Shown here: positions 3,524 through 48,442 of the stretch, one piece after another
Layout: every line of letters starts with the position of its first letter
Numbering within the stretch: position 1 is the stretch's first letter
NCBI GenBank assembly: GCA_031391665.1
Contig: JANMUN010000153.1
Length of the DNA: 64,000 bases
Source: Ferruginibacter sp.
GTDB taxonomy: Bacteria > Bacteroidota > Bacteroidia > Chitinophagales > Chitinophagaceae
Direction: 5' to 3' (one strand)
Translations under genes and position numbers: made by a program
Notes under the pieces: generated by a model
Databases searched by the model: none
Seen by the model: the letters and a program-made list of their open reading frames with translations, nothing else
Told to the model about the DNA's origin: nothing

Positions 3524-4153
3524 CTATAAAATTACCCGTAACATCAACGCATAGCCCACATCTTTTTTAGGGTTGTCGGTAATTTTTACAATGTGCAGGC
3601 CGGCTGCTGTCCACACGGTAAATATTTCTCCTTTTTTATGTTTAGATACGGCTTCATCTAATTGCTGCAGCATAACGCCACGAACAAACCAGCCTAAATC
3701 GCCGCCTTTAACAGCTGAAGAATAATCGGCACTGTAAGTGCTTGCCATTGATGCAAAACTTTCCCTGCCTGATTGTATTTTTTCTATAATAGTATCTGCC
3801 AATGAAGAGGCAAACCTAAAACTGTAAGTGGAAGTATCTAACACAATATGACTGACATGATAAAATGTATTGGGCGCTTTGTATAAAATCTTCACCAAAA
3901 TATTTTCGCCTTTAAACGGGCCATACACTTTGCCTACTTTTCCTTTGTAAGCAAGACTGTCTGCTTTGCCCATAAAATTACTGGTGGTAACCACGGCCAC
4001 CGTATCAATAAAATATTTTTTCTTCAATACATATTTTACAAAACCAATGGGATTACTGGTAGTATCCAATACCTTTTTTATTTGTGCAAGGGTTTGGCTT
4101 TTTGCGGCAAATACAATACTTGTGAACAGTAAGCTAAAAAGAAGTTTTTTCAT
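3524..4153 (-). CDS. Parvulin-type peptidyl-prolyl cis-trans isomerase, secreted
   Basis: Signal peptide, and C-terminal PpiC/parvulin core (GGDLGWF..G.M...LDEAV...GEIF.V.T..G.HIVKI). Confidence 0.8.
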   Translation of the reverse strand: MKKLLFSLLFTSIVFAAKSQTLAQIKKVLDTTSNPIGFVKYVLKKKYFIDTVAVVTTSNFMGKADSLAYKGKVGKVYGPFKGENILVKILYKAPNTFYHVSHIVLDTSTYSFRFASSLADTIIEKIQSGRESFASMASTYSADYSSAVKGGDLGWFVRGVMLQQLDEAVSKHKKGEIFTVWTAAGLHIVKITDNPKKDVGYALMLRVIL

Positions 4154-4239
4154 TTTTAAATTTGAGCAGCAAATATAAGTTTTAATTAAGAAGACAGCCT
4201 TTGTAAGACTGTCTTCAATAAAATATTAACTAAATTTAT

Positions 4240-4986
4240 TTACTTTAAAGCGTACAATACTTTTACTTCAAAACGCAATTTAATTTTTCTGTAATCAATT
4301 CCACCTTCGGCTATACCACCATAAGAATCAATTCTTGATTTTTCCATTAGTGAGTTAGCAGTCAAATTAGATTTATATCTTCCAGAAAGTACATCAGAAC
4401 TTGACGATTCTTCCGGCTCAACAATTGTAATGGCTTCACCTACTTTTTCATTTACAGATTCGGATAAATACACTGCTTTTTCTTTAGCAGCTTTTACAGC
4501 CATAATTTTTAACTGCTTTCTAAATTCTATTATTTTACTGTGAGAAGTTCTGGTAATACTAAAATTGCTGGTGGCTTCATCATCAAGGCGGTTAACCAGT
4601 TCGTCAATTAATTTTGTGTTGCTGAATTTTAATTGATAAGTGATAGAAGCCAATAGATCCGGATCTTTTTTTCTGCGTCTCCAAATTGATGACAGGTTAT
4701 AACCATCGTAGGATGCCACAGCAATATTGCTGTCGGCAATACCAACTGCTTTGCAGTTGGCTAAAAAGTCAATTTTGATTTTGTCGAGCTCCTTTTTTTC
4801 TTCTCCTTTTTTCTTGTATTCTCTTAAATCTACCTGCACATAAATTTCATCGGGAATAACTTCCATTTCGGCACTGCCTGTAACTGAAATTGTTTTTGGA
4901 AAAGGGAAACAACCGAGCTGGGTATTTTGTGCATTAAGCAAACCGATTACTGTAACTGCAATAATGACCAATGATATTTTTTTCAT
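4240..4986 (-). CDS. SIMPL (DUF541) domain periplasmic protein
   Basis: ISVTGSAEMEVIPDEIYVQVDL is the typical SIMPL N-terminus. The start was moved to the ATG at 4986 (MKKISLVIIAV signal peptide). Confidence 0.8.
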   Translation of the reverse strand: MKKISLVIIAVTVIGLLNAQNTQLGCFPFPKTISVTGSAEMEVIPDEIYVQVDLREYKKKGEEKKELDKIKIDFLANCKAVGIADSNIAVASYDGYNLSSIWRRRKKDPDLLASITYQLKFSNTKLIDELVNRLDDEATSNFSITRTSHSKIIEFRKQLKIMAVKAAKEKAVYLSESVNEKVGEAITIVEPEESSSSDVLSGRYKSNLTANSLMEKSRIDSYGGIAEGGIDYRKIKLRFEVKVLYALK

Positions 4987-5034
4987 GTTATAATTTTTAT
5001 AAGGGATGAAATGGATGCAGCAATTACACAAACA

Positions 5035-7152
5035 TTACAACTTTAATTTTCTGGCAACCGCCTTCACCAATTTCTTCATTTCTTCCAGCTCACCCAATTG
5101 CTGTTGTATAAAACTATTGTCTTCTAATCTTCCTACAACTTTGTTCATTTCTTCATTGGTATCGTACACCATTTTTTTAAAGGGGTTGCTGTAATCTTTA
5201 GCACGGCTGTTAAAAATCCCTTTGCACATCCATTCTTTGGTATCTAATGCCTGTTGCAGTAATTGTTTAAAAAGTGCAGGTGTAAATTGTTTTGGGGTAC
5301 TGTTTAATATTTCTAATAACGAAGTATAACCATGATTTAATTTATCGGCAGTATAAGCTTCTCCCTGCTGGCGGTAAAAATTATGCATATCATCCCAACT
5401 TTTTACTTTACCCGATTTTATATTTCGTCTTAAGTTTTCAACAGCAGTTTTTTGTATCAATTGTCCGCCAATATTTAACCACTGGCTTCTTTGTATTTTA
5501 GCAGAGAGGGATTTTTTTAAAGTTTCAAAATCGGCAAATTTATTTTTTTGTAAATGATTTAATATTTCCATGGTGCCGTAATACTGAATCACTTCTTTGA
5601 ATATCGCCATCGACTGCGGCACTTTTAAAATTTTTGTAGTGCGGTCAGTATTTTCCCAGCCTGTAATTGTTGCAGTGCCTTCTGCATCGGGCTTTAATTT
5701 TTGTAAAATTTGTAAGCCATCAAAAATTTCATTCACCGTATCAGGTGCTAAAAAATCATATTCCAGGTGCTGAATTTTTTCTGTTCTTCGGTCACGGTCA
5801 AAATACTTGTGTGCATTACGTGCCAGTGCATACATGTTGTACATAAACCAGTAAGCAGGCATTACCACTAACATATCGTTACTTACATCATTGCTCACTA
5901 AACTAAAAGGTACCCGAATATTTAACTCTGCCGGAAAATCGCCTTTAGCAATTATTGTAAACGCAGCAAATTTTGAATTGTGTTTTAAACTTACACAAAG
6001 CCCCGGCCAAAAACCACGGCCTGCAACTATTTCACCATCTGCAGCTCGGCTGTTATGATTGCTGCCAATGGTGGCACCTGCTGCAATATTACTTTGCCCC
6101 ATCACAACTGCTGCACATAAAAAAGAATTATTATGATGTTGCTCGTGTGCCGGAAAAATTAAGGAGTTTAACACTTCGCAACAGGAAATAGTGGAGTTGT
6201 TACCGAGATAAGAATTGATTAGCCTGGCGCCATATTTCAACTGGCAATGCGATGCCATAATAAAACGTACTGCTTTTGCACCGTAAAATATCCTGCAGCC
6301 ATAACCCACAATACCATTTACCAATTCGCAGCCTTCACCAATTTGAGAAGTGCGTTCTTCATCACTGTTAACCGTAAGGTTTTTTAATTTGTTGGCACCT
6401 TTAAAATAAGCATCGGTACCCACCCACACATCTTTTATAATTTTACAATTTTTTATAACTGTGCGGTCACCAATTTTTCCATAGTAGCCTCTTAGTTTAT
6501 CAAAGCGGTTTTCAGTAAATTCTTTAAATTTATTCAGCAGTGCATCATCATCCCTGTATTTGCTCCATAAGTAAGCATCGCCGGGTAACATGCCGTTAAA
6601 AGGCAACACACTTCTGCCACCGTTCTCGTTACACAATTCCAACCACACCCTTACTTTTTCATCTTCGCCTTCTTTAATAATACCGTTACCAAATTTAGCA
6701 TTATCGGTACAGGCCAGTTCGTTTACATTGGCTATCATTACTTCGTTGCCAATAATATAATGCCCTAAATAGTTAACATTATCTATGCAAACATTATCGC
6801 CAAAATCGCAACTGATGATGGTGCTGTTGTATAAACCTACAGCCATTCTTAAATTATGAAACTCGAGGTAATACGGTTCTAATTTTCCAATACGTACTAA
6901 ACCAAAAAACTTACAGTTCTTTACTAATTCGGCATTAAAAAATGAGGAGACTAAAATATTATTCCAATCATCGGAGGTGTTGCGGTTACGCACCAGCACT
7001 TCAATTTCCAGTGCCGATAATTTTCGGTAACTGATACCATTACGGTTTTGTTTATTACGAAGATGGTATTCATTTTTTCCTTTGGGAAGATATTGCGGGG
7101 CTACAAAATTGTAGCCGAGGTTATTAACCGGATGTTTTTGAATGATGTTCAT
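5035..7152 (-). CDS. DUF4954-family protein with left-handed beta-helix (hexapeptide-like) repeats
   Basis: 705 aa, with repeated [IV]G.n motifs through the middle. The family assignment is from memory of Bacteroidota DUF4954 proteins and is unverified. Confidence 0.6.
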   Translation of the reverse strand: MNIIQKHPVNNLGYNFVAPQYLPKGKNEYHLRNKQNRNGISYRKLSALEIEVLVRNRNTSDDWNNILVSSFFNAELVKNCKFFGLVRIGKLEPYYLEFHNLRMAVGLYNSTIISCDFGDNVCIDNVNYLGHYIIGNEVMIANVNELACTDNAKFGNGIIKEGEDEKVRVWLELCNENGGRSVLPFNGMLPGDAYLWSKYRDDDALLNKFKEFTENRFDKLRGYYGKIGDRTVIKNCKIIKDVWVGTDAYFKGANKLKNLTVNSDEERTSQIGEGCELVNGIVGYGCRIFYGAKAVRFIMASHCQLKYGARLINSYLGNNSTISCCEVLNSLIFPAHEQHHNNSFLCAAVVMGQSNIAAGATIGSNHNSRAADGEIVAGRGFWPGLCVSLKHNSKFAAFTIIAKGDFPAELNIRVPFSLVSNDVSNDMLVVMPAYWFMYNMYALARNAHKYFDRDRRTEKIQHLEYDFLAPDTVNEIFDGLQILQKLKPDAEGTATITGWENTDRTTKILKVPQSMAIFKEVIQYYGTMEILNHLQKNKFADFETLKKSLSAKIQRSQWLNIGGQLIQKTAVENLRRNIKSGKVKSWDDMHNFYRQQGEAYTADKLNHGYTSLLEILNSTPKQFTPALFKQLLQQALDTKEWMCKGIFNSRAKDYSNPFKKMVYDTNEEMNKVVGRLEDNSFIQQQLGELEEMKKLVKAVARKLKL

Positions 7153-7323
7153 GAAGGGAATGAATAATTAATAATGGATAATTAATAATTTGTTCAATTT
7201 GCTACTCAATTAGAAATTACTGGTTAAAATAAAATTTGATGTTTCAAGTTAAGCATATCCCGGCAAAACAAAAAGAGCTAACTAATTTGAAACATTATTC
7301 ATTATAAATTACAGCATTATCAA

Positions 7324-9159
7324 TTATTCAACGGTTACACTCTTTGCCAAATTCCTCGGCTTATCTACGTCTACTCCTTTTGCAATACCTACATAATAAC
7401 TTAATAACTGCAATGGAATAGTACTGAGCATTGGCGCAATAATTTCGTCGGCGGCAGGTACATAAAAAATATCATCGGCAAGGCCGGGTATTACATCATC
7501 ACCTTCGGTAATGATGGCAATTATTTTTCCTTTACGGGCTTTTATTTCCTGCATGTTGCTCACAATTTTTTCGTGATAGCTGTCTTTGGTAGCCACAAAA
7601 ATTACGGGCAGATTTTCATCTACCAAAGCAATGGGGCCATGTTTCATTTCGGCAGCAGGGTAACCCTCGGCGTGAATGTAACTGATTTCTTTAAGTTTTA
7701 AAGCACCTTCAAGTGCAATAGGGAAATTATATCCTCTTCCTAAAAATAAGGCATCCCCTGCGCCTTTATATTTTTCGGCAATCGCTTTTAAAAGATCAGC
7801 GCTTTTTAAAATGGCATCCACTTTTTCCGGCACAGCATCTAATTCCATCAATAAATTATTATAGCGTTCATCGCTGATAGTACCTTTTTCTTTTGCAATT
7901 TTTAATGCCATCATCATAATTACGGCAAGCTGCCCGGTAAAAGCTTTAGTAGAAGCAACACCAATTTCGGGGCCGGCATGTGTATATGCACCGCCATCAC
8001 TTATCCGTGCAATGGAAGAACCCACTACATTTACAATTCCAAAAATGATGGCGCCATTTTCTTTTGCTCTTTCAATAGCCACTAAGGTATCGGCAGTTTC
8101 GCCACTCTGGCTAATGGCAATAATAATATCGCCTTTATTTACTATCGGGTTACGGTAGCGGAACTCACTGGCATATTCCACTTCTACAGAAATACGGCAG
8201 AGCTCTTCAATAACATATTCAGCTAACAGTCCGGCGTGCCAGCTGGTACCGCAGGCAACAATTATTATACGTTGTGCATTTTTAAAATGTTCAATATTAT
8301 TCATAACACCGCTCATGGTAATGGTGCCGGCTGTTGCATCTAACCTGCCACGCAAACAATCATGAATGGTACTGGGCTGTTCAAAAATTTCTTTCAGCAT
8401 AAAATGGTCGTAGCCGCCTTTTTCAATTGCTGCCAGTTCCATATCCAGCTTGGTAATAAACGGAGTAATTTTTTCGTTACCCAAATTTTTCAATATCAAT
8501 TCATCGGGCCTCACAATGGCCAGCTCGTAATCATTTACATACACTACTTCTTTGGTATATTCTAACATGGGACTTGCATCGCTTCCTAAAAAATGTTCGC
8601 CTTTGCCCACGCCAATTACCAACGGGCTGCCTTTACGTGCCGCAATAATAGTTTGCGGATCATCTTCATCAATTAATAAAATACAATACGCCCCGGTAAT
8701 TCTTTTCAGCGCCACTCTTACCGCTTCTTCTAAATTACAGTCGTTATTTTTTTTAATGTCTTCAATAAAATTTAATAAAACTTCTGTATCGGTATCGCTG
8801 GTAAAAGCATACCCTTTGTTTACTAATTCTTTTTTTATTTGGGCATAGTTTTCAATAATGCCGTTGTGTATCATGGCCAGCTTGCCGCTTTTTGAAGTGT
8901 GCGGATGGGCATTTCTGTCGCTGGGTTCGCCATGCGTAGCCCAACGGGTATGGCCAATGCCAATGTTAGAATGTAAATCTTTGCCAATAATGCTTTCTTC
9001 CAGGTCGGCCACACGGCCTTTCTTTTTATAAACTTTTAAGCCACCGTTTAAAAGTGCCACGCCGGTACTGTCGTAGCCACGGTATTCTAAACGTTTTAAA
9101 CCAGTAATTACTATCGGATATGCCTCACGTGGGCCGGTGTAACCTACAATTCCACACAT
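7324..9159 (-). CDS. glmS: Glutamine--fructose-6-phosphate aminotransferase
   Basis: MCGIVGY N-terminal nucleophile, two SIS domains and C-terminal ...LAKSVTVE. The start was placed at the ATG giving Met-Cys (9159). Confidence 0.97.
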   Translation of the reverse strand: MCGIVGYTGPREAYPIVITGLKRLEYRGYDSTGVALLNGGLKVYKKKGRVADLEESIIGKDLHSNIGIGHTRWATHGEPSDRNAHPHTSKSGKLAMIHNGIIENYAQIKKELVNKGYAFTSDTDTEVLLNFIEDIKKNNDCNLEEAVRVALKRITGAYCILLIDEDDPQTIIAARKGSPLVIGVGKGEHFLGSDASPMLEYTKEVVYVNDYELAIVRPDELILKNLGNEKITPFITKLDMELAAIEKGGYDHFMLKEIFEQPSTIHDCLRGRLDATAGTITMSGVMNNIEHFKNAQRIIIVACGTSWHAGLLAEYVIEELCRISVEVEYASEFRYRNPIVNKGDIIIAISQSGETADTLVAIERAKENGAIIFGIVNVVGSSIARISDGGAYTHAGPEIGVASTKAFTGQLAVIMMMALKIAKEKGTISDERYNNLLMELDAVPEKVDAILKSADLLKAIAEKYKGAGDALFLGRGYNFPIALEGALKLKEISYIHAEGYPAAEMKHGPIALVDENLPVIFVATKDSYHEKIVSNMQEIKARKGKIIAIITEGDDVIPGLADDIFYVPAADEIIAPMLSTIPLQLLSYYVGIAKGVDVDKPRNLAKSVTVE

Positions 9160-40435: not shown

Positions 40436-40472
40436 ATTTATGCAAACCGCCCCTATACTGCCCCTTAAAATT

Positions 40473-40536
40473 AAAAAAGCCCTGAAAGCTAATGCTGTCA
40501 AGGCTTCTATTTTTAAGCTGTACTCGGGATGGGAGT
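40473..40536. repeat. attL: orphan copy of the tRNA-Leu 3' end plus its downstream hairpin
   Basis: The 17-nt core gtactcgggatgggagt (40520-40536) is identical to 47878-47894. 40473-40511 aligns with 47830-47868 with 4 mismatches by eye. Confidence 0.8.
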
Positions 40537-40654: not shown

Positions 40655-40677
40655 CGCCCACTGTACCGCCCACTGTA
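40655..40677 (+). promoter_or_regulatory. Tandem CGCCCACTGTA repeats (candidate integrase arm-type sites), left end
   Basis: cgcccactgta-c-cgcccactgta. The same 19-mer cgcccactgtaccgcccac recurs at 47803-47821 in the same orientation. Confidence 0.45.
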
Positions 40678-43261: not shown

Positions 43262-43595
43262 AAATGATTATACCGTAATAGCGTTTTATAAAGATGCTAA
43301 GCCAAAAAAATGGCAGTTTGTACATGGGCTATCAAAGTTTGTTTCATTCATAAACGAAAAGCATCCCAATTGGCTGTACATAAATGTTTATGAACGCAGA
43401 ACGGGTAAATATCTAAAAAGATTTTATCCCAATAACATTATCCCTTACTTTCTAACCTTATTGCCCTTCGCAATAATCCTTTATTTTTTTTTAACCTTTA
43501 ATAAAAATCCGCATCAATCAACCTTTACTAATGATTTTAATAATACCGCAACGATTACGACGCTTAAATCAAAAGGAGGATTGTCATGTATTTAG
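43254..43595 (+). CDS. Hypothetical island protein with one TM helix
   Basis: Overlaps both neighbours by 8-10 nt; hydrophobic segment YFLTLLPFAIILYFFL. Confidence 0.45.
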   Translation: MHKNDYTVIAFYKDAKPKKWQFVHGLSKFVSFINEKHPNWLYINVYERRTGKYLKRFYPNNIIPYFLTLLPFAIILYFFLTFNKNPHQSTFTNDFNNTATITTLKSKGGLSCI

Positions 43596-44491
43596 TAAAA
43601 AACACTTACGGAATCAGTTCCGTGATACATCCAAAAGTGGCAAATCTTTCTTCTATGGGAAAGCTTGCAGGTTCTTCAATGGATAGAAAGAAATACACAA
43701 AGAAGTATAAAGATGAATTAGAACAACTCATTTCTAAGCCATTAGATTTTGAAGAAACAAAAAAGGATGAAGTAAAAAAACTTCGTTCTATGTCAAGGCG
43801 TACAAAATCAAAGATAAGGGTAAAAATAATTGCTTTTTCAAGAGTACATAAAAATCTTTCCTTTCTAACACTAACATTTGTAAATAAGGTGGAAGATTCA
43901 CTTGCCGTAAAAGTGCTTCATAAATTCCTTGATAATTGTGTTAAGCGAAGCAAAGATTTTCAATACTTATGGGTAGCTGAAAAACAAACCCAAAATGAAG
44001 CATTTAAAGACAACATCCACTTTCACATTATCAATAACAAGTTTTGGAAGATTGATAAATGGTGGCCGTACTGGATTCAATTACAAGCAAAGTTTGGAAT
44101 AGTTCCGAGGGATGCAAGTTTTAAACCTACATCAGCTTTCAATGTAAAGCATGTTAGTTCCAACAATGTAAAAGGAATTATCAATTACCTAACAAGCTAC
44201 GTTACAAAAAATGAAAGTGAGTTTGGCTGCCAGGTGTGGAACTGCTCAAAGAAAATCTCCAGGCTCTACACTGGTCATTATTCGGGCTTGGAATTCATAC
44301 ACCAGTTTGAACGATTAGAAGCTGCAGGCCAATTAGGCGGCACAATTAAAACTTACAAACAAGATTATGCAAACGTAAATGTAATACCCTTAAACAGGGT
44401 TACAATCAATTTTTACAGTAAAGTAGATAATAAGAATAAACAGTTTTGGAATAATCCAGAATCATCAGAAAAAATAAAAGAAACATTATGA
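43586..44491 (+). CDS. Putative rolling-circle replication initiator (HUH endonuclease, two-tyrosine phiX174/VP4-like)
   Basis: Motif I SFLTLTF, motif II NIHFHIIN (HUH), and motif III INYLTSYVTK (Y-x3-Y-x2-K), in canonical order and spacing. Confidence 0.6.
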   Translation: MYLVKNTYGISSVIHPKVANLSSMGKLAGSSMDRKKYTKKYKDELEQLISKPLDFEETKKDEVKKLRSMSRRTKSKIRVKIIAFSRVHKNLSFLTLTFVNKVEDSLAVKVLHKFLDNCVKRSKDFQYLWVAEKQTQNEAFKDNIHFHIINNKFWKIDKWWPYWIQLQAKFGIVPRDASFKPTSAFNVKHVSSNNVKGIINYLTSYVTKNESEFGCQVWNCSKKISRLYTGHYSGLEFIHQFERLEAAGQLGGTIKTYKQDYANVNVIPLNRVTINFYSKVDNKNKQFWNNPESSEKIKETL

Positions 44492-44841: not shown

Positions 44842-45023
44842 ATGCAATAAAAGCACTAAACGAACAATGCAGGGTTTGCGAACCATGCCGGCTGAACGCA
44901 AAGATTATAGAGTTTGAACAATTGCCGGAAAATGAAAAATTTAACTTTCACTGGTATGAAAAAGATAAACATTTTTTAATTTACTGTGAACCTTGCAAGG
45001 TTTACAAATTGCTTGGAGATTAG
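44838..45023 (+). CDS. Small Cys-rich (zinc-ribbon-like) island protein
   Basis: CRVCEPC ... CEPC pattern in 61 aa; ATGA overlap with the upstream ORF. Confidence 0.45.
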   Translation: MNAIKALNEQCRVCEPCRLNAKIIEFEQLPENEKFNFHWYEKDKHFLIYCEPCKVYKLLGD

Positions 45024-45047
45024 AAGAGAGGCGTAAGCCTCTTTTTT
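45024..45047 (+). terminator. Rho-independent terminator ending the island plus-strand operon
   Basis: gaggc-gtaa-gcctc stem extended by A:T pairs, followed by tttttt. Confidence 0.7.
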
Positions 45048-45152
45048 AGATATAAAGATTACATTAACAACTTTGTAGTTTTAATCGCTTAGAATGAAAA
45101 TATTATCAACTAGAGATTTAATTTTATTGTTCTCTATAATGACAATTTCAGC

Positions 45153-46040
45153 CTAAGATTTTGATGCTACAATACATTTTAAATAAAAACTATGTCCAGC
45201 TTCTGTAAATTTAACCCGCCCCATATCGTCACTCTCAATTAACCTATACTTCATTAGTTTATTAATCCCTTCTCTATTGAAAATAGCTGAAGAAATATTT
45301 CTAGCTAACGATGCTCCATTTGTAATCATGAAATCCAATAAATTAATTTTCTTTTGAGAAATTTCAATACCTTCTTCTTTTAACAGGCCTTCAAGTTGGC
45401 TAAAAGATAATCCTGCATAAAGAGAATTAGAATTCGTTTCAGGGTTACTTAATTTACTTGTCAATTCAAAATTTTCTTTTGTTAGTCTTGCTATTTGTTC
45501 AGCAAGAATTGTTGTATCTACTGAATTATCCCCTCTTATCCACCCTATCAATTCCTTTCTATAACCAAACTCAGACAATGTCTCATGAATTGCTATCTTA
45601 ATATCTTTTGTATCGTCCCAAAATTTTACAAGATTTTTTAACACACTACTTCTAAATAATTCTAATGCTTTTGGATTATGCTGCTCGATTGCAACTAATC
45701 CCATTTTCTTTACTCTTTCCTCTATTATACTGTTATTTATTACCACGGAAAATAAAGGTTTATTTTTTTCCATAGCATACTCATATTCTAATTGGGTATA
45801 GCTCTTCCCTGTTTTAATATCGATACTACCGTATCTTCCTCCAAGAATCAATAGATATATATCCGATTCATCAATCCATCTTTCTATAACTGTCATTTGC
45901 GATTCATCTCCTGCTGAAAATAACTCCATACCTGCAGGTATGTTCCCTGACGACAGAATGGCTTCTACAGCTGCCTGACGTTCTTTTATTAAATCAGTAT
46001 AAGTAGAAGAAACGAATACTTGCAACTTTTTATCCTTCAT
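45153..46040 (-). CDS. DUF4062 (TIR/deoxyribosyltransferase-like fold) domain protein with helical C-terminal half
   Basis: The N-terminus LQVFVSSTYTDLIKERQAAVEAILSSGNIPAGMELFSAGDESQMTVIERWIDESDIYLLILGGRYGS matches my memory of the DUF4062 consensus (VF.SST..DL..ER......I......GME.F.A......CL..I..CD.Y..I.G.RYG). Confidence 0.7.
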   Translation of the reverse strand: MKDKKLQVFVSSTYTDLIKERQAAVEAILSSGNIPAGMELFSAGDESQMTVIERWIDESDIYLLILGGRYGSIDIKTGKSYTQLEYEYAMEKNKPLFSVVINNSIIEERVKKMGLVAIEQHNPKALELFRSSVLKNLVKFWDDTKDIKIAIHETLSEFGYRKELIGWIRGDNSVDTTILAEQIARLTKENFELTSKLSNPETNSNSLYAGLSFSQLEGLLKEEGIEISQKKINLLDFMITNGASLARNISSAIFNREGINKLMKYRLIESDDMGRVKFTEAGHSFYLKCIVASKS

Positions 46041-46170
46041 AGCAATTTTATAGTTTAATGACTTTTAATAAAAAAAGACTTAGGATATCCTCGTCAACTA
46101 AGAAGTGTATTAAGTATGAAGATGGATTTATCATTGAAAAATTCAACATTATAAACTAAGGTTATTGAGT

Positions 46171-46935
46171 TTATATTTCTACCAGATTATTTGATTGTAT
46201 TTCAAGTATGCCCAATCTTGTTATATTAAACTTATCCTTTTGTTTTACAATTAAATCTTTTTCATGCTCCATTCTCAAAAGTGTAGCTTTTAGATTTTTT
46301 CTTTGCAGCGGTTTAACCCATAAAGATAATTGTTCAATTGCAGCACCATTTGAGCCGCAATGATATAATAATAGTAAAATTATTTCTGAAACTTTTAATT
46401 TAGGATTTAAAGTCTTTAAAAAACCATTAAAGTCCTCAACAACAGGGATTGCGTTTATAGTAATTGCTTTAATTAGTTCATAAGCCTTGTCTGCTGTAAT
46501 CCCTCCTGACAATCGAATAAATTCGGCTAAGACCCAATCTAGAGAAGCAAACACAAAACTTGAATCTTGCAAATTTGGGTCAATACCATCTGCTAAATGT
46601 GCCGCATCTCTCTTATTTCTTATATCATAAACAACCCTCAAAGTACGAGGTATATGTATTCGTAAAGAGTCAGGAAATGTGGTTGCTAACCCTTGCAATT
46701 TTCTTATCAAGCCATCAGTATCAAGTTGTTTTCCAATTTGGGTAATACTAAACCCTGCAAGATGTTCGCACATTCGAAAGGCTGCTTCTGAAAACCTACC
46801 GCCTTCAACCTCTGTAGGTCTATGATTGCCTAAGAAATAATTTCTTTTTTGCTCTTGATAGCAATCAAGTAATTCATCAACAAGTTGGGATGGGAATCGA
46901 GAGATTAAAACAGTTTTAATAATATTTAGACTCAC
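46171..46935 (-). CDS. Hypothetical protein with HEPN-like R-x6-H motif and C-terminal winged-helix-like segment
   Basis: The motif IRNKRDAAH (codons at 46597-46620) sits in a predicted helical N-domain. The C-terminal ~70 aa look wHTH-like. ATGA overlap with the upstream ORF. Confidence 0.5.
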   Translation of the reverse strand: MSLNIIKTVLISRFPSQLVDELLDCYQEQKRNYFLGNHRPTEVEGGRFSEAAFRMCEHLAGFSITQIGKQLDTDGLIRKLQGLATTFPDSLRIHIPRTLRVVYDIRNKRDAAHLADGIDPNLQDSSFVFASLDWVLAEFIRLSGGITADKAYELIKAITINAIPVVEDFNGFLKTLNPKLKVSEIILLLLYHCGSNGAAIEQLSLWVKPLQRKNLKATLLRMEHEKDLIVKQKDKFNITRLGILEIQSNNLVEI

Positions 46936-47519
46936 TATTTAGCCTTTTTCTTTTTAGTTGATTTTTTTGCAGTCTTTTTTTTGCTTGCATGCTCTGCTAA
47001 TGCTTTACTTACAGCTTCTCTTTCTGGTAGGGCATTAACAATAGCTTCCCCTTTAGCAGATAGTGCTTTTTTACTGCCACCAATAGAGGTTAAAAAATGT
47101 TGTCTACTTATAGCATGATTTATAAAGACAGATGCATTTGAAAAGGAAGGTTGCCTTCCATCTTTATTTCCTTGTATTATATCCATATTTTTAACTCCAT
47201 CTAAACCTTGAACCTTTTCTAAAAAATAAACAATACATGCAATTTTTTCAGCGTTATCGTGTGGCTTTTTCTGAACCAAAAAATCTTTTATTGAAGTAGT
47301 AACCGGTATTCCAGAAGTATTACTCCCGGTGATGTTTGCCCCCAAAGGATTAGCACTTCCTAAATTTGGGGAAGTTGCAGATTGTATATTTGTTGTACTT
47401 TGAATCTTATATTTCAAAACAATCCAATCAAAAACCCTCTGTCTTTCTTCTGTAGATAGTCCTCCAAAAAAATCATCTATTCCTCTTAACGCATCGTGTT
47501 CGGTAATTTTCTTATTCAT
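46935..47519 (-). CDS. Hypothetical protein: short N-domain, Ser/Thr/Asn/Gly-rich linker, globular C-domain, Lys-rich tail
   Basis: 194-aa ORF, first gene of the minus-strand module. The tail SKKKTAKKSTKKKKAK suggests nucleic-acid binding. Confidence 0.5.
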   Translation of the reverse strand: MNKKITEHDALRGIDDFFGGLSTEERQRVFDWIVLKYKIQSTTNIQSATSPNLGSANPLGANITGSNTSGIPVTTSIKDFLVQKKPHDNAEKIACIVYFLEKVQGLDGVKNMDIIQGNKDGRQPSFSNASVFINHAISRQHFLTSIGGSKKALSAKGEAIVNALPEREAVSKALAEHASKKKTAKKSTKKKKAK

Positions 47520-47802
47520 ATTTATGTTTTTAAACCAATGTGCATTTAAGACACATCAGTAAATATACAAATATTCATTATGAATTAACAACAATTTGAA
47601 TATAGTACATTTAAATTAGTCTAATGAAAAAGATTGAAAGCGTATTAAATCCCACCTTCGATTTTTTAAAAAAAATCTCACCTAAAATGTCCCCCAATGA
47701 AATAAAACAGCCCTGCAAGTCTATAACATAAAGTCTTTTAAGTTATGGCAAGTGCCCAGAACAGGATTAGAACTGTAGGACACATTTTAAATTAATCTAA
47801 AA

Positions 47803-47821
47803 CGCCCACTGTACCGCCCAC
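47803..47821 (+). promoter_or_regulatory. CGCCCACTGTA-type repeat, right end of island
   Basis: cgcccactgtaccgcccac is identical to 40655-40673. Confidence 0.45.
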
Positions 47822-47829
47822 CAAAAAAC

Positions 47830-47894
47830 AAAAAAGCCCTGAAAGTCAATACTGTCAAGGCTTTTATTGGTTGTTAAGTACTCGGGATGGGAGT
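47830..47894. repeat. attR: element-borne hairpin plus core that completes the tRNA-Leu 3' end
   Basis: See attL. The core at 47878-47894 overlaps the last 16 nt of the tRNA. Confidence 0.8.
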
Positions 47895-47964
47895 TGAACC
47901 CACACTTACATTACTGTAAACAGGATTTTAAGTCCTGCGTGTCTACCAGTTCCACCACCCGAGT
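47879..47964 (-). tRNA. tRNA-Leu (anticodon UAA), long variable arm
   Basis: The minus strand reads actcgggtggtggaactggtagacacgcaggacttaaaatcctgt...gtgggttcaactcccatcccgagta. It has a 7-bp acceptor stem, anticodon loop cttaaaa and T-loop ttcaact. Confidence 0.85.
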
Positions 47965-48037
47965 GTATTTATTCTCTAAAAAAAGAGAATCTGGTATAGA
48001 AAAAAAATCCCAACAAAAATGTCAGGATAATTTTTTG

Positions 48038-48110
<73 letters not shown>

Positions 48111-48238
48111 TTGTATCTGAAAGCTCCAGCTTCCATGTTAAGAACTTTTTTACTTTTGTTTTGAAGCTGGAGCTTCAAAGTACAGTACCGTTTTTTCGGA
48201 CGGCAAAAATAAGGGTTGTATTGCTACAACAAAAATTT

Positions 48239-48442
48239 TTATTTGTATTTAGGATTGTACAGGGTATTTTCCGGCACCTTTACCTCCGGTTTTCCTTTGT
48301 AACGGTGGGTGTATAAATTATAACAACCTCCCAAAACCAAAGCCACCACTAAAAAAACCTGGCAAAACCAGATAAAACGTGACGAAGACACCCAGTTATG
48401 CGTAAAATCCTTATCAGAGTTGTCAATAATTTCGTGTGCCAT
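48239..48442 (-). CDS. Small single-TM protein downstream of the glycosyltransferase gene
   Basis: 67 aa with one clear TM helix (FIWFCQVFLVVALVLGGC), co-directional with the GT2 gene. Weak call. Confidence 0.4.
   Translation of the reverse strand: MAHEIIDNSDKDFTHNWVSSSRFIWFCQVFLVVALVLGGCYNLYTHRYKGKPEVKVPENTLYNPKYK

Follow-up and report, generated by a model that had tools for sequence, protein, structure and literature searches.

Do the three neighbouring genes carried in one orientation by a small integrative element of Ferruginibacter sp. form a single system, and what would their products do? The element, of ~7.4 kb and bounded by attachment (att) sites at a tRNA-Leu gene, lies in a stretch of 64,000 nucleotides (nt) of contig JANMUN010000153.1, hereafter the window, and its three minus-strand genes are here called g1, g2 and g3 (Table 1). 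A preliminary description of the window had proposed that together they represent a candidate undescribed defence or addiction system. We find instead that g1-g2 and g3 are two unrelated and independent units residing on one element, and not a three-gene system. With just over even confidence, we read g3 as an NADase of the Swarozyc/Evangelion kind, and g1-g2 as a pair made of a HEPN-type effector and a DNA-binding partner.

The distribution of homologues carries the first part of this answer. Eighty loci with g2 homologues at 44-66% identity were drawn from reference genomes of Bacteroidota, Acidobacteriota, Verrucomicrobiota, Planctomycetota, Nitrospirota, Actinomycetota, Proteobacteria, candidate phyla radiation (CPR) lineages and archaea. 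A partner gene lies directly upstream of the g2 homologue in essentially all of them, whereas a DUF4062 gene such as g3 adjoins g2 in none (0/80), this adjacency being present only in the window. The closest relatives of g2 (68-76% identity) again display the g1-g2 arrangement and no DUF4062 gene, and in the other g2 loci inspected the coupled upstream partner is present and DUF4062 is not. Conversely, none of 71 viral or proviral contig loci harbouring g3 relatives has g1, g2 or any of the partner types described below (pA, pB or pC) in its vicinity, nor do three genomic g3 loci (L007-L009); the contexts of g3 relatives vary, and include no conserved partner. Because DUF4062 is absent near all g2 loci and g1, g2 and the other partners are absent near all these g3 loci, we conclude that the two modules are independent. 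Of the co-occurrence implied by the three-gene proposal, the part that concerns g1 and g2 therefore holds, whereas in the other loci inspected g3 is found with neither of them.

The pairing of g1 and g2 is itself tight. A g1-type gene lies immediately upstream of g2 and on the same strand in ~60 loci according to a hidden Markov model search and in 72 of 80 according to BLAST clustering, with gaps mostly from -4 to +30 nt over the 80 loci. In the window, the junction reads AAA-TAG-TG-AGT, the TAG stop codon of g1 sharing one base with the GTG start codon of g2. The ATGA overlap reported earlier for this junction is consequently a misreading, but the translational coupling deduced from it stands, and 4-nt overlaps of the ATGA type (gap of -4) are present in many homologous loci. 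In 12 loci the g1-type partner (type pA) is replaced by an alternative type, pB, to which it is remotely related (hhalign of pA against pB, E = 9e-5), and in 11 loci one or two additional small genes, of a third type termed pC, are found upstream. By hhalign, pC is unrelated to pA or pB, and the partners are unrelated to g2. Since some g2 loci have two or three small upstream genes of type pC, the module is expandable to three or four genes; no conserved gene is found downstream of g2 across the 80 loci. The pC genes lie upstream of the g1-type gene (for example in L017, L022, L024, L037, L040 and L041) and code for proteins of ~120-140 amino acids (aa) with a beta-rich N-terminus, a basic linker and a C-terminus that resembles a winged helix-turn-helix (wHTH) by eye, without profile support.

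The two members of the pair evolve at different rates: in 98.7% of 1675 locus pairs it is g2 that shows the higher conservation, its mean identity being 54.7% as compared to 39.1% for g1. The spread of g2 is patchy and crosses phyla at 44-66% identity, and some genomes possess two copies. We observed two modules on one Longimicrobiales contig (L060/L061) and two in one Acidobacteriaceae metagenome-assembled genome (L046/L059). The flanks of the pair are heterogeneous, and include housekeeping genes together with scattered defence genes, such as those of MADS, PbeA, BrxH, Dpd and restriction-modification methyltransferases. Among the close relatives of g2 (68-76%), one is located beside an HNH gene and hut genes, and another beside a split integrase of the window's type. 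A few neighbourhoods deserve mention in their own right. In a Terriglobales locus (L001), a short pA-like gene (6947-7402) precedes pB (7433-7999) and g2 (8001-8771), and nearby are an AAA_15/AAA_21 ATPase gene with that of a 193-aa partner, and the terminase gene of a prophage remnant. In a Chitinophagaceae locus (L004), the segment just upstream of g1-g2 (4148-6515) codes for a 187-aa protein, a ParA/CbiA-like ATPase and a 254-aa RelA_SpoT protein, and this cluster may be another toxin or defence unit. Finally, in L011 an NYN-domain RNase fused to a cold-shock domain (4252-5169) lies directly upstream of g1-g2, and a 1608-aa open reading frame (ORF) downstream.

The g2 family is large, with 1661 clusters at 90% identity and 831 at 50%, nearly all members being ~255 aa long, and g2 has no significant match in Pfam, NCBIfam, PADLOC or PHROG. 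Its AlphaFold2 (AF2) model, with a mean predicted local distance difference test score (pLDDT) of 83, consists of a helical N-domain (helices at residues 16-34, 43-60, 73-81, 89-107, 120-142 and 148-156) followed by a C-terminal winged helix. The latter had been suspected previously and is borne out, as the family profile matches the MarR protein 5ffx over residues 183-249 (E = 0.002) and Foldseek retrieves MarR-type structures, including HucR (5dd8), for the C-terminus. As for the N-domain, proteins of the HEPN superfamily occupy much of the top 50 Foldseek matches in the PDB, with probabilities up to 0.96 and TM-scores normalised to the target of 0.5-0.6, at E-values that are all above 0.1 (best 0.25). 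Among them are AF_0298 (2hsb, probability 0.96), Csm6 (6tug), TT1696 (1ufb), TM0613 (1o3u), ST0689 (1wol), AbiV, sacsin and 4nqf, together with 7bxo, a HEPN toxin. A Foldseek search of the g2 model against a viral structure library gave no match.

The motif IRNKRDAAH that had been noticed in g2 is indeed located in this helical domain, and it is strongly conserved. In an alignment of 63 members, down to 25% identity, E50, R106, D124 and W134 are invariant, R109, H113, E138 and R141 are at least 90% conserved, and N107 is the majority residue, giving the consensus I-R-N-x-R-x-[VA]-A-H. The most recurrent weak Pfam match of the family is Abi_C (5 of the 63 members, E = 0.021-0.095), which we take to be an AbiJ-type HEPN domain; on the family consensus it covers residues 101-136, directly over the motif, at a sub-threshold E-value of 0.046. 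Because the motif has the expected form and the fold is suggestive, we read g2 as HEPN-like even though no HEPN profile reaches significance, and it most likely represents a new clade of predicted HEPN-type RNases. Of the HEPN identity put forward earlier, the conserved R-N-x5-H and the HEPN structural neighbours can be retained, whereas all sequence and structure tests stay below significance.

Concerning g1, there are no family matches in Pfam, NCBIfam, PADLOC or PHROG. The AF2 model recovers the architecture previously outlined for this protein, with a short helical N-terminal part, a linker, a globular domain and the Lys-rich tail SKKKTAKKSTKKKKAK. The N-terminal hairpin contains a conserved 'E..ER.RV' segment that alignments show to be common to the pB partner type, the linker varies in length and sequence among homologues, and the basic tail is kept both in close g1 homologues and in the consensus of 77 pA sequences. 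The globular domain is a winged helix modelled with high confidence, for which Foldseek ranks the DNA-binding domain of Rok first (5zuz, probability 0.98, E = 0.037) and MarR and PadR proteins next. The overall layout is that of nucleoid proteins of the Rok/H-NS type. These model-based features support the earlier suggestion of a nucleic-acid-binding partner and point to a protein with the layout of a nucleoid-associated DNA binder, its binding being predicted.

What would such a pair do? It most likely represents a toxin-antitoxin or abortive-infection module. In its fullest form, which we put forward tentatively and with clearly less than even confidence, the pair would be an unrecognised and widespread abortive-infection or addiction system, in which a clade of wHTH-fused HEPN RNases is restrained on DNA by a Rok-like, Lys-tailed partner. 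In the main proposal, g2 would be the effector, combining an N-terminal RNase-like domain with a MarR-like winged helix, and g1 would bind DNA and keep g2 inactive, acting as antitoxin, sensor or both. Should g1 be lost or displaced, through phage infection or loss of the element, the g2 RNase would be set free, leading to RNA cleavage and growth arrest, and the pair would serve phage exclusion or stabilisation of the element. A number of observations weigh against this proposal. Many neighbours of the pair are housekeeping genes; g1-g2 corresponds to no PADLOC model, a search of PADLOC-DB v2 giving no match at E ≤ 1 for g1, g2 or g3 (a database that DUF4062 systems post-date); and tblastn of g2 gave no match in a phage collection and a single weak and partial one among plasmids, in a Natronomonas megaplasmid. 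Moreover, no curated HEPN family matches g2 significantly (best Pfam E = 0.02-0.05), the family profile searched against PDB sequences retrieves wHTH proteins only and no HEPN protein, every HEPN match by Foldseek has the high E-value given above, and the AF2 model places the motif at the end of a helix and in a loop of low confidence (pLDDT below 50 for residues 110-115).

The main rival to a toxin-antitoxin or abortive-infection role is that g1 and g2 are not toxic and form a regulatory or nucleoid pair, in which a MarR-like g2 with a helical sensor or dimerisation domain and a Rok/H-NS-like g1 would silence or regulate acquired DNA. It would fit the presence of a wHTH in both proteins (a further point against the toxin reading), the succession of oligomeriser, linker and DNA-binding domain in g1 with Rok as best structural match, and the addition in some loci of pC genes with their wHTH-like C-termini, seen by eye without profile support; the sub-threshold HEPN evidence, the housekeeping neighbours and the lack of a PADLOC match would also be consistent with it. 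However, conservation within g2 peaks in the R-N-x-R-x-x-A-H segment of its helical domain and not in the DNA-reading helix, and the putative effector is more conserved than its partner, as is typical of toxin-antitoxin and defence modules. It is likewise typical of such modules that the two genes move together closely across phyla, archaea and CPR lineages among them, and that some genomes have several copies. We consequently judge a purely regulatory pair to be rather unlikely, if far from negligible.

The evidence for g3 is of another kind. Its N-domain, recognised from the outset as DUF4062-type and TIR-like, matches PF13271 over residues 7-89 (E = 2.7e-29, 101.6 bits for a Pfam gathering cut-off of 24.7), and the protein further matches phrog_15411 (E = 8e-66) and the solved structures of KpSwz (10wc, 11cq and 11cv; phmmer E = 7.4e-27). 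DUF4062 is a TIR-like NADase, acting on nicotinamide adenine dinucleotide (NAD+), and single proteins composed of DUF4062 plus an auxiliary (AUX) region are anti-phage systems (bioRxiv 10.64898/2026.05.01.722283, 10.64898/2026.06.25.731849). In Swarozyc, KpSwz has the catalytic residue E97 and is activated by the phage portal, resulting in NAD+ depletion and abortive infection, and in Evangelion, Eva01 requires F11, E87-Y88, W162 and the AUX region; the Eva02 lineage was tested and gave no protection (bioRxiv 10.64898/2026.05.01.722283, 10.64898/2026.06.25.731849). The deposited KpSwz chain is the E97A mutant and its numbering is offset by 13, a value validated by the fact that it reproduces R18, D16, D71 and W176 named in the KpSwz paper. 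With this offset, E97 of KpSwz is chain position 84, and is aligned with E85 of g3. The preliminary description had chosen the glutamate of the GMELF segment (E39) as target for mutagenesis; this residue is conserved, but it is E85 that corresponds to the experimentally catalytic glutamate of the family. Among 120 g3 homologues, F9, E39, Q48, E85-Y86 and W167 are invariant.

Residues 203-295 of g3 are the least conserved part of these homologues (column identity 0.28-0.54) and show no match to the AUX region of KpSwz, the phmmer alignment ending at g3 residue 202 and chain position 197; nor are they aligned in most relatives from viral contigs. Since this region does not align with the portal-binding AUX of KpSwz, the trigger of g3 probably differs from that of KpSwz. 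By homology, g3 is predicted to be a further member of the DUF4062 defence family published in 2026 (Swarozyc/Evangelion), with a different sensor region. By analogy with KpSwz and Eva01, it would be held as an auto-inhibited oligomer until the AUX region meets a phage-derived cue, upon which the E85 site would hydrolyse NAD+ and bring about abortive infection. The label 'undescribed' hence no longer applies to g3, while it still fits g1-g2, as we found no description of a two-gene HEPN-plus-wHTH system in the literature. In Flavobacterium (L007/L008), we also observed a g3 homologue (6001-6915) translationally coupled to a second DUF4062 gene (6912-7934) whose product additionally bears an EC042_2821 domain, a paired layout unlike that of the lone g3.

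It may be objected that g3 is a DUF4062 protein that has degenerated or has no role in defence, such as an enzyme of nucleotide metabolism, and only resembles Swarozyc/Evangelion. There is no relation between its AUX region and the portal-binding one of KpSwz, which also counts against our assignment, the Q-W-E motif of Eva01 reads Q-M-T in the Bacteroidota subfamily of g3, and one tested lineage, Eva02, is not protective. We nevertheless consider this improbable, in view of the invariance of the catalytic E-Y pair, F9 and W167, of a similarity to KpSwz that runs through the stalk, and of the location of the gene on a mobile element, with relatives in 71 proviral contigs. Less probable still, to the point of being very doubtful, is a single defence or addiction system comprising all three genes, whose effectors would be a HEPN RNase and a DUF4062 NADase and in which g1 would be their nucleic-acid-binding partner: a shared orientation and close spacing on the same small mobile element speak for it, but the mutual absence of the two modules from each other's loci (0/80 and 0/71), the spacer that parts g2 from g3 and the fact that DUF4062 proteins of g3's build act as single genes all argue otherwise. 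Lastly, that g1-g3 belong to the element's own replication, excision or transfer machinery has hardly any chance of being right and is largely refuted, for although the genes lie inside the att-bounded element beside int/xis/rep and one g2 relative also adjoins the same integrase type, the flanks of the 80 g2 loci are heterogeneous with no recurrent integrase or Rep family (the only integrase-type family among the recurrent ones being rve_3, 2 of 134 neighbours) and g3 relatives are found in unrelated contexts.

The setting of these genes corresponds closely to what had been described. The coordinates of the three minus-strand ORFs and the length of the g2-g3 gap are exact, the genes run antisense to int/xis/rep and converge with them on a strong hairpin terminator, and the tRNA-Leu island is real, its att sites being a 17-nt direct repeat of the 3' end of tRNA-Leu(taa), so that the three genes are confirmed as cargo of a small integrative element (Table 1). 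The element encodes a tyrosine integrase (Arm-DNA-bind_5, SAM_5 and Phage_integrase domains), an HTH_17 excisionase-like protein and a rolling-circle Rep, and because of the latter it may, once excised, replicate in the form of a small circle, or may descend from a single-stranded DNA (ssDNA) phage or plasmid. Scans for sigma-70 promoters, terminators and the Bacteroidetes -7 motif (TAnnTTTG) left transcription units not definable, with no minus-strand match in 46041-46170 or 47520-47877. A search of Rfam over 44900-48200 matched two tRNAs only, hence there is no candidate for an RNA antitoxin.

Table 1. Features of the integrative element and of its three cargo genes (positions in the 64,000-nt window).
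Feature	Position	Strand	Remarks
Left att repeat	40520-40536		17-nt direct repeat of the tRNA-Leu(taa) 3' end
Rolling-circle Rep	43586-44491		PF23343 REP_ORF2-G2P, phrog_3584, phrog_3419
Hairpin terminator	45021-45048	+	Convergence point of rep operon and g3; z = -4.45
g3	45153-46040	-	295 aa; single-gene DUF4062 protein, predicted TIR-like NADase type
g3 C-terminal AUX region	45156-45434	-	Residues 203-295; putative sensor
g3 DUF4062 core and helical stalk	45435-46034	-	Residues 3-202, aligned to KpSwz chain 3-197
g3 E85 codon	45786-45788	-	Counterpart of KpSwz catalytic E97; E-Y motif
g2-g3 spacer	46041-46170		130 nt; read as boundary of two independent modules
g2	46171-46935	-	254 aa; GTG start; conserved core of the pair
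g2 C-terminal winged helix	46186-46398	-	~Residues 180-250
g2 N-domain	46456-46935	-	~Residues 1-160; all-helical, HEPN-like
g2 motif R106-N-K-R-D-A-A-H113	46597-46620	-	R-x6-H
g1	46935-47519	-	194-aa ORF; pair partner, type pA
g1 Lys-rich tail SKKKTAKKSTKKKKAK	46938-46985	-	Residues 179-194; disordered in AF2 model
g1 winged-helix domain	46992-47291	-	Residues 77-176; pLDDT ~90
g1 Ser/Thr/Asn/Gly linker	47304-47399	-	Residues 41-72; disordered, pLDDT < 50
g1 N-terminal helical hairpin	47409-47501	-	Residues 7-37; AF2 model
tRNA-Leu(taa)	47878-47964	-	3' 17 nt (47878-47894) form the right att repeat

Some further observations concern the ends of the island. A perfect 19-nt direct repeat, CGCCCACTGTACCGCCCAC, is present just within each of them (40655-40673 and 47803-47821), and is a candidate arm-type site of the integrase or another recombination site. 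A terminator-like segment downstream of tRNA-Leu also occurs at both ends (40467-40511 and 47824-47868, 87% identity), with a degenerate third copy inside the island (47698-47742, 62% identity). Finally, a plus-strand ORF of 149 aa (47867-48316) overlaps tRNA-Leu and tRNA-Gly on the other strand and is almost certainly spurious.

These results turn a plausible three-gene reading into two units, each of which has its own interest. The inclusion of g3 would extend the new family of DUF4062 NADase defence proteins into integrative elements of Bacteroidota, and its different sensor domain helps in asking what such sensors recognise. The g1-g2 pair brings to light a large unannotated family (831 clusters at 50% identity) lying outside Pfam, NCBIfam, PADLOC and PHROG models, and ranging from soil Acidobacteriota and Actinomycetota, including Streptomyces, to CPR lineages and archaea. 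If one member of the pair is a HEPN toxin and the other a partner resembling nucleoid proteins, the pair would represent a new regulatory logic for HEPN systems and a new entry for the catalogues of defence and toxin-antitoxin systems; if g2 is restrained by DNA-bound g1, the pair would convert the invasion or perturbation of DNA into cleavage of RNA.

How do these two units compare with known systems? With Swarozyc and Evangelion, g3 shares E85-Y86, the N-terminal aromatic residue F9 and the stalk residue W167 (corresponding to W176 of KpSwz), as well as a build of core plus variable AUX region in a stand-alone gene borne by a mobile element. Significant homology to KpSwz extends up to residue 202, but the AUX region of KpSwz binds the phage portal and residues 203-295 of g3 do not align with it, and Eva01 differs in having Q-W-E where g3 has Q-M-T.

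We compared g2 with the HEPN toxins or effectors HepT/MntA, AbiJ (Abi_C), AbiV, ApeA, DARNA (PD-T7-3) and that of type IX retrons. It resembles HEPN RNases in that an R-[N]-x(5)-H motif lies within an N-terminal domain of ~150 residues modelled as all-helical, but differs from them by the absence of a significant HEPN match in Pfam or PADLOC, by the R-x6-H spacing and by a second conserved arginine, R109. DARNA likewise consists of an N-terminal HEPN-type domain and a C-terminal nucleic-acid-binding domain, and its reported closest structural match, Csm6 (6tug), is also among the neighbours of g2; however, its C-domain is Pds5-like and senses ssDNA, whereas that of g2 is a wHTH. In type IX retrons the HEPN effector is masked by a KH-HTH partner, and, as there and in HepT systems, a separately encoded partner, here g1, could hold the effector inactive, although g1 is neither an MNT nucleotidyltransferase, nor a KH-HTH protein, nor an RNA. 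DARNA and the retron IX effector were rejected as relatives of g1-g2, since the architectures differ, and are functional analogies only.

The partner g1 resembles Rok, and functionally H-NS, Lsr2 and MvaT, in its N-terminal helical segment, flexible linker and C-terminal winged helix; it differs in the absence of sequence similarity, in its additional Lys-rich tail and in being always encoded beside g2, for which reason we consider that it would act as a dedicated partner and not as a global regulator. As in type II toxin-antitoxin systems, g1-g2 is an operon of two genes whose stop and start codons overlap, the gene for the predicted DNA-binding protein comes first, the upstream partner evolves faster, mobility is high and some genomes have several copies; unlike in these systems, the putative toxin g2 bears its own wHTH and some loci carry two or three upstream genes of partner type. 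All in all, the kind of system that g3 represents is best regarded as already explained by the 2026 literature, and g1-g2 as a putative variant of the HEPN-type toxin/effector theme.

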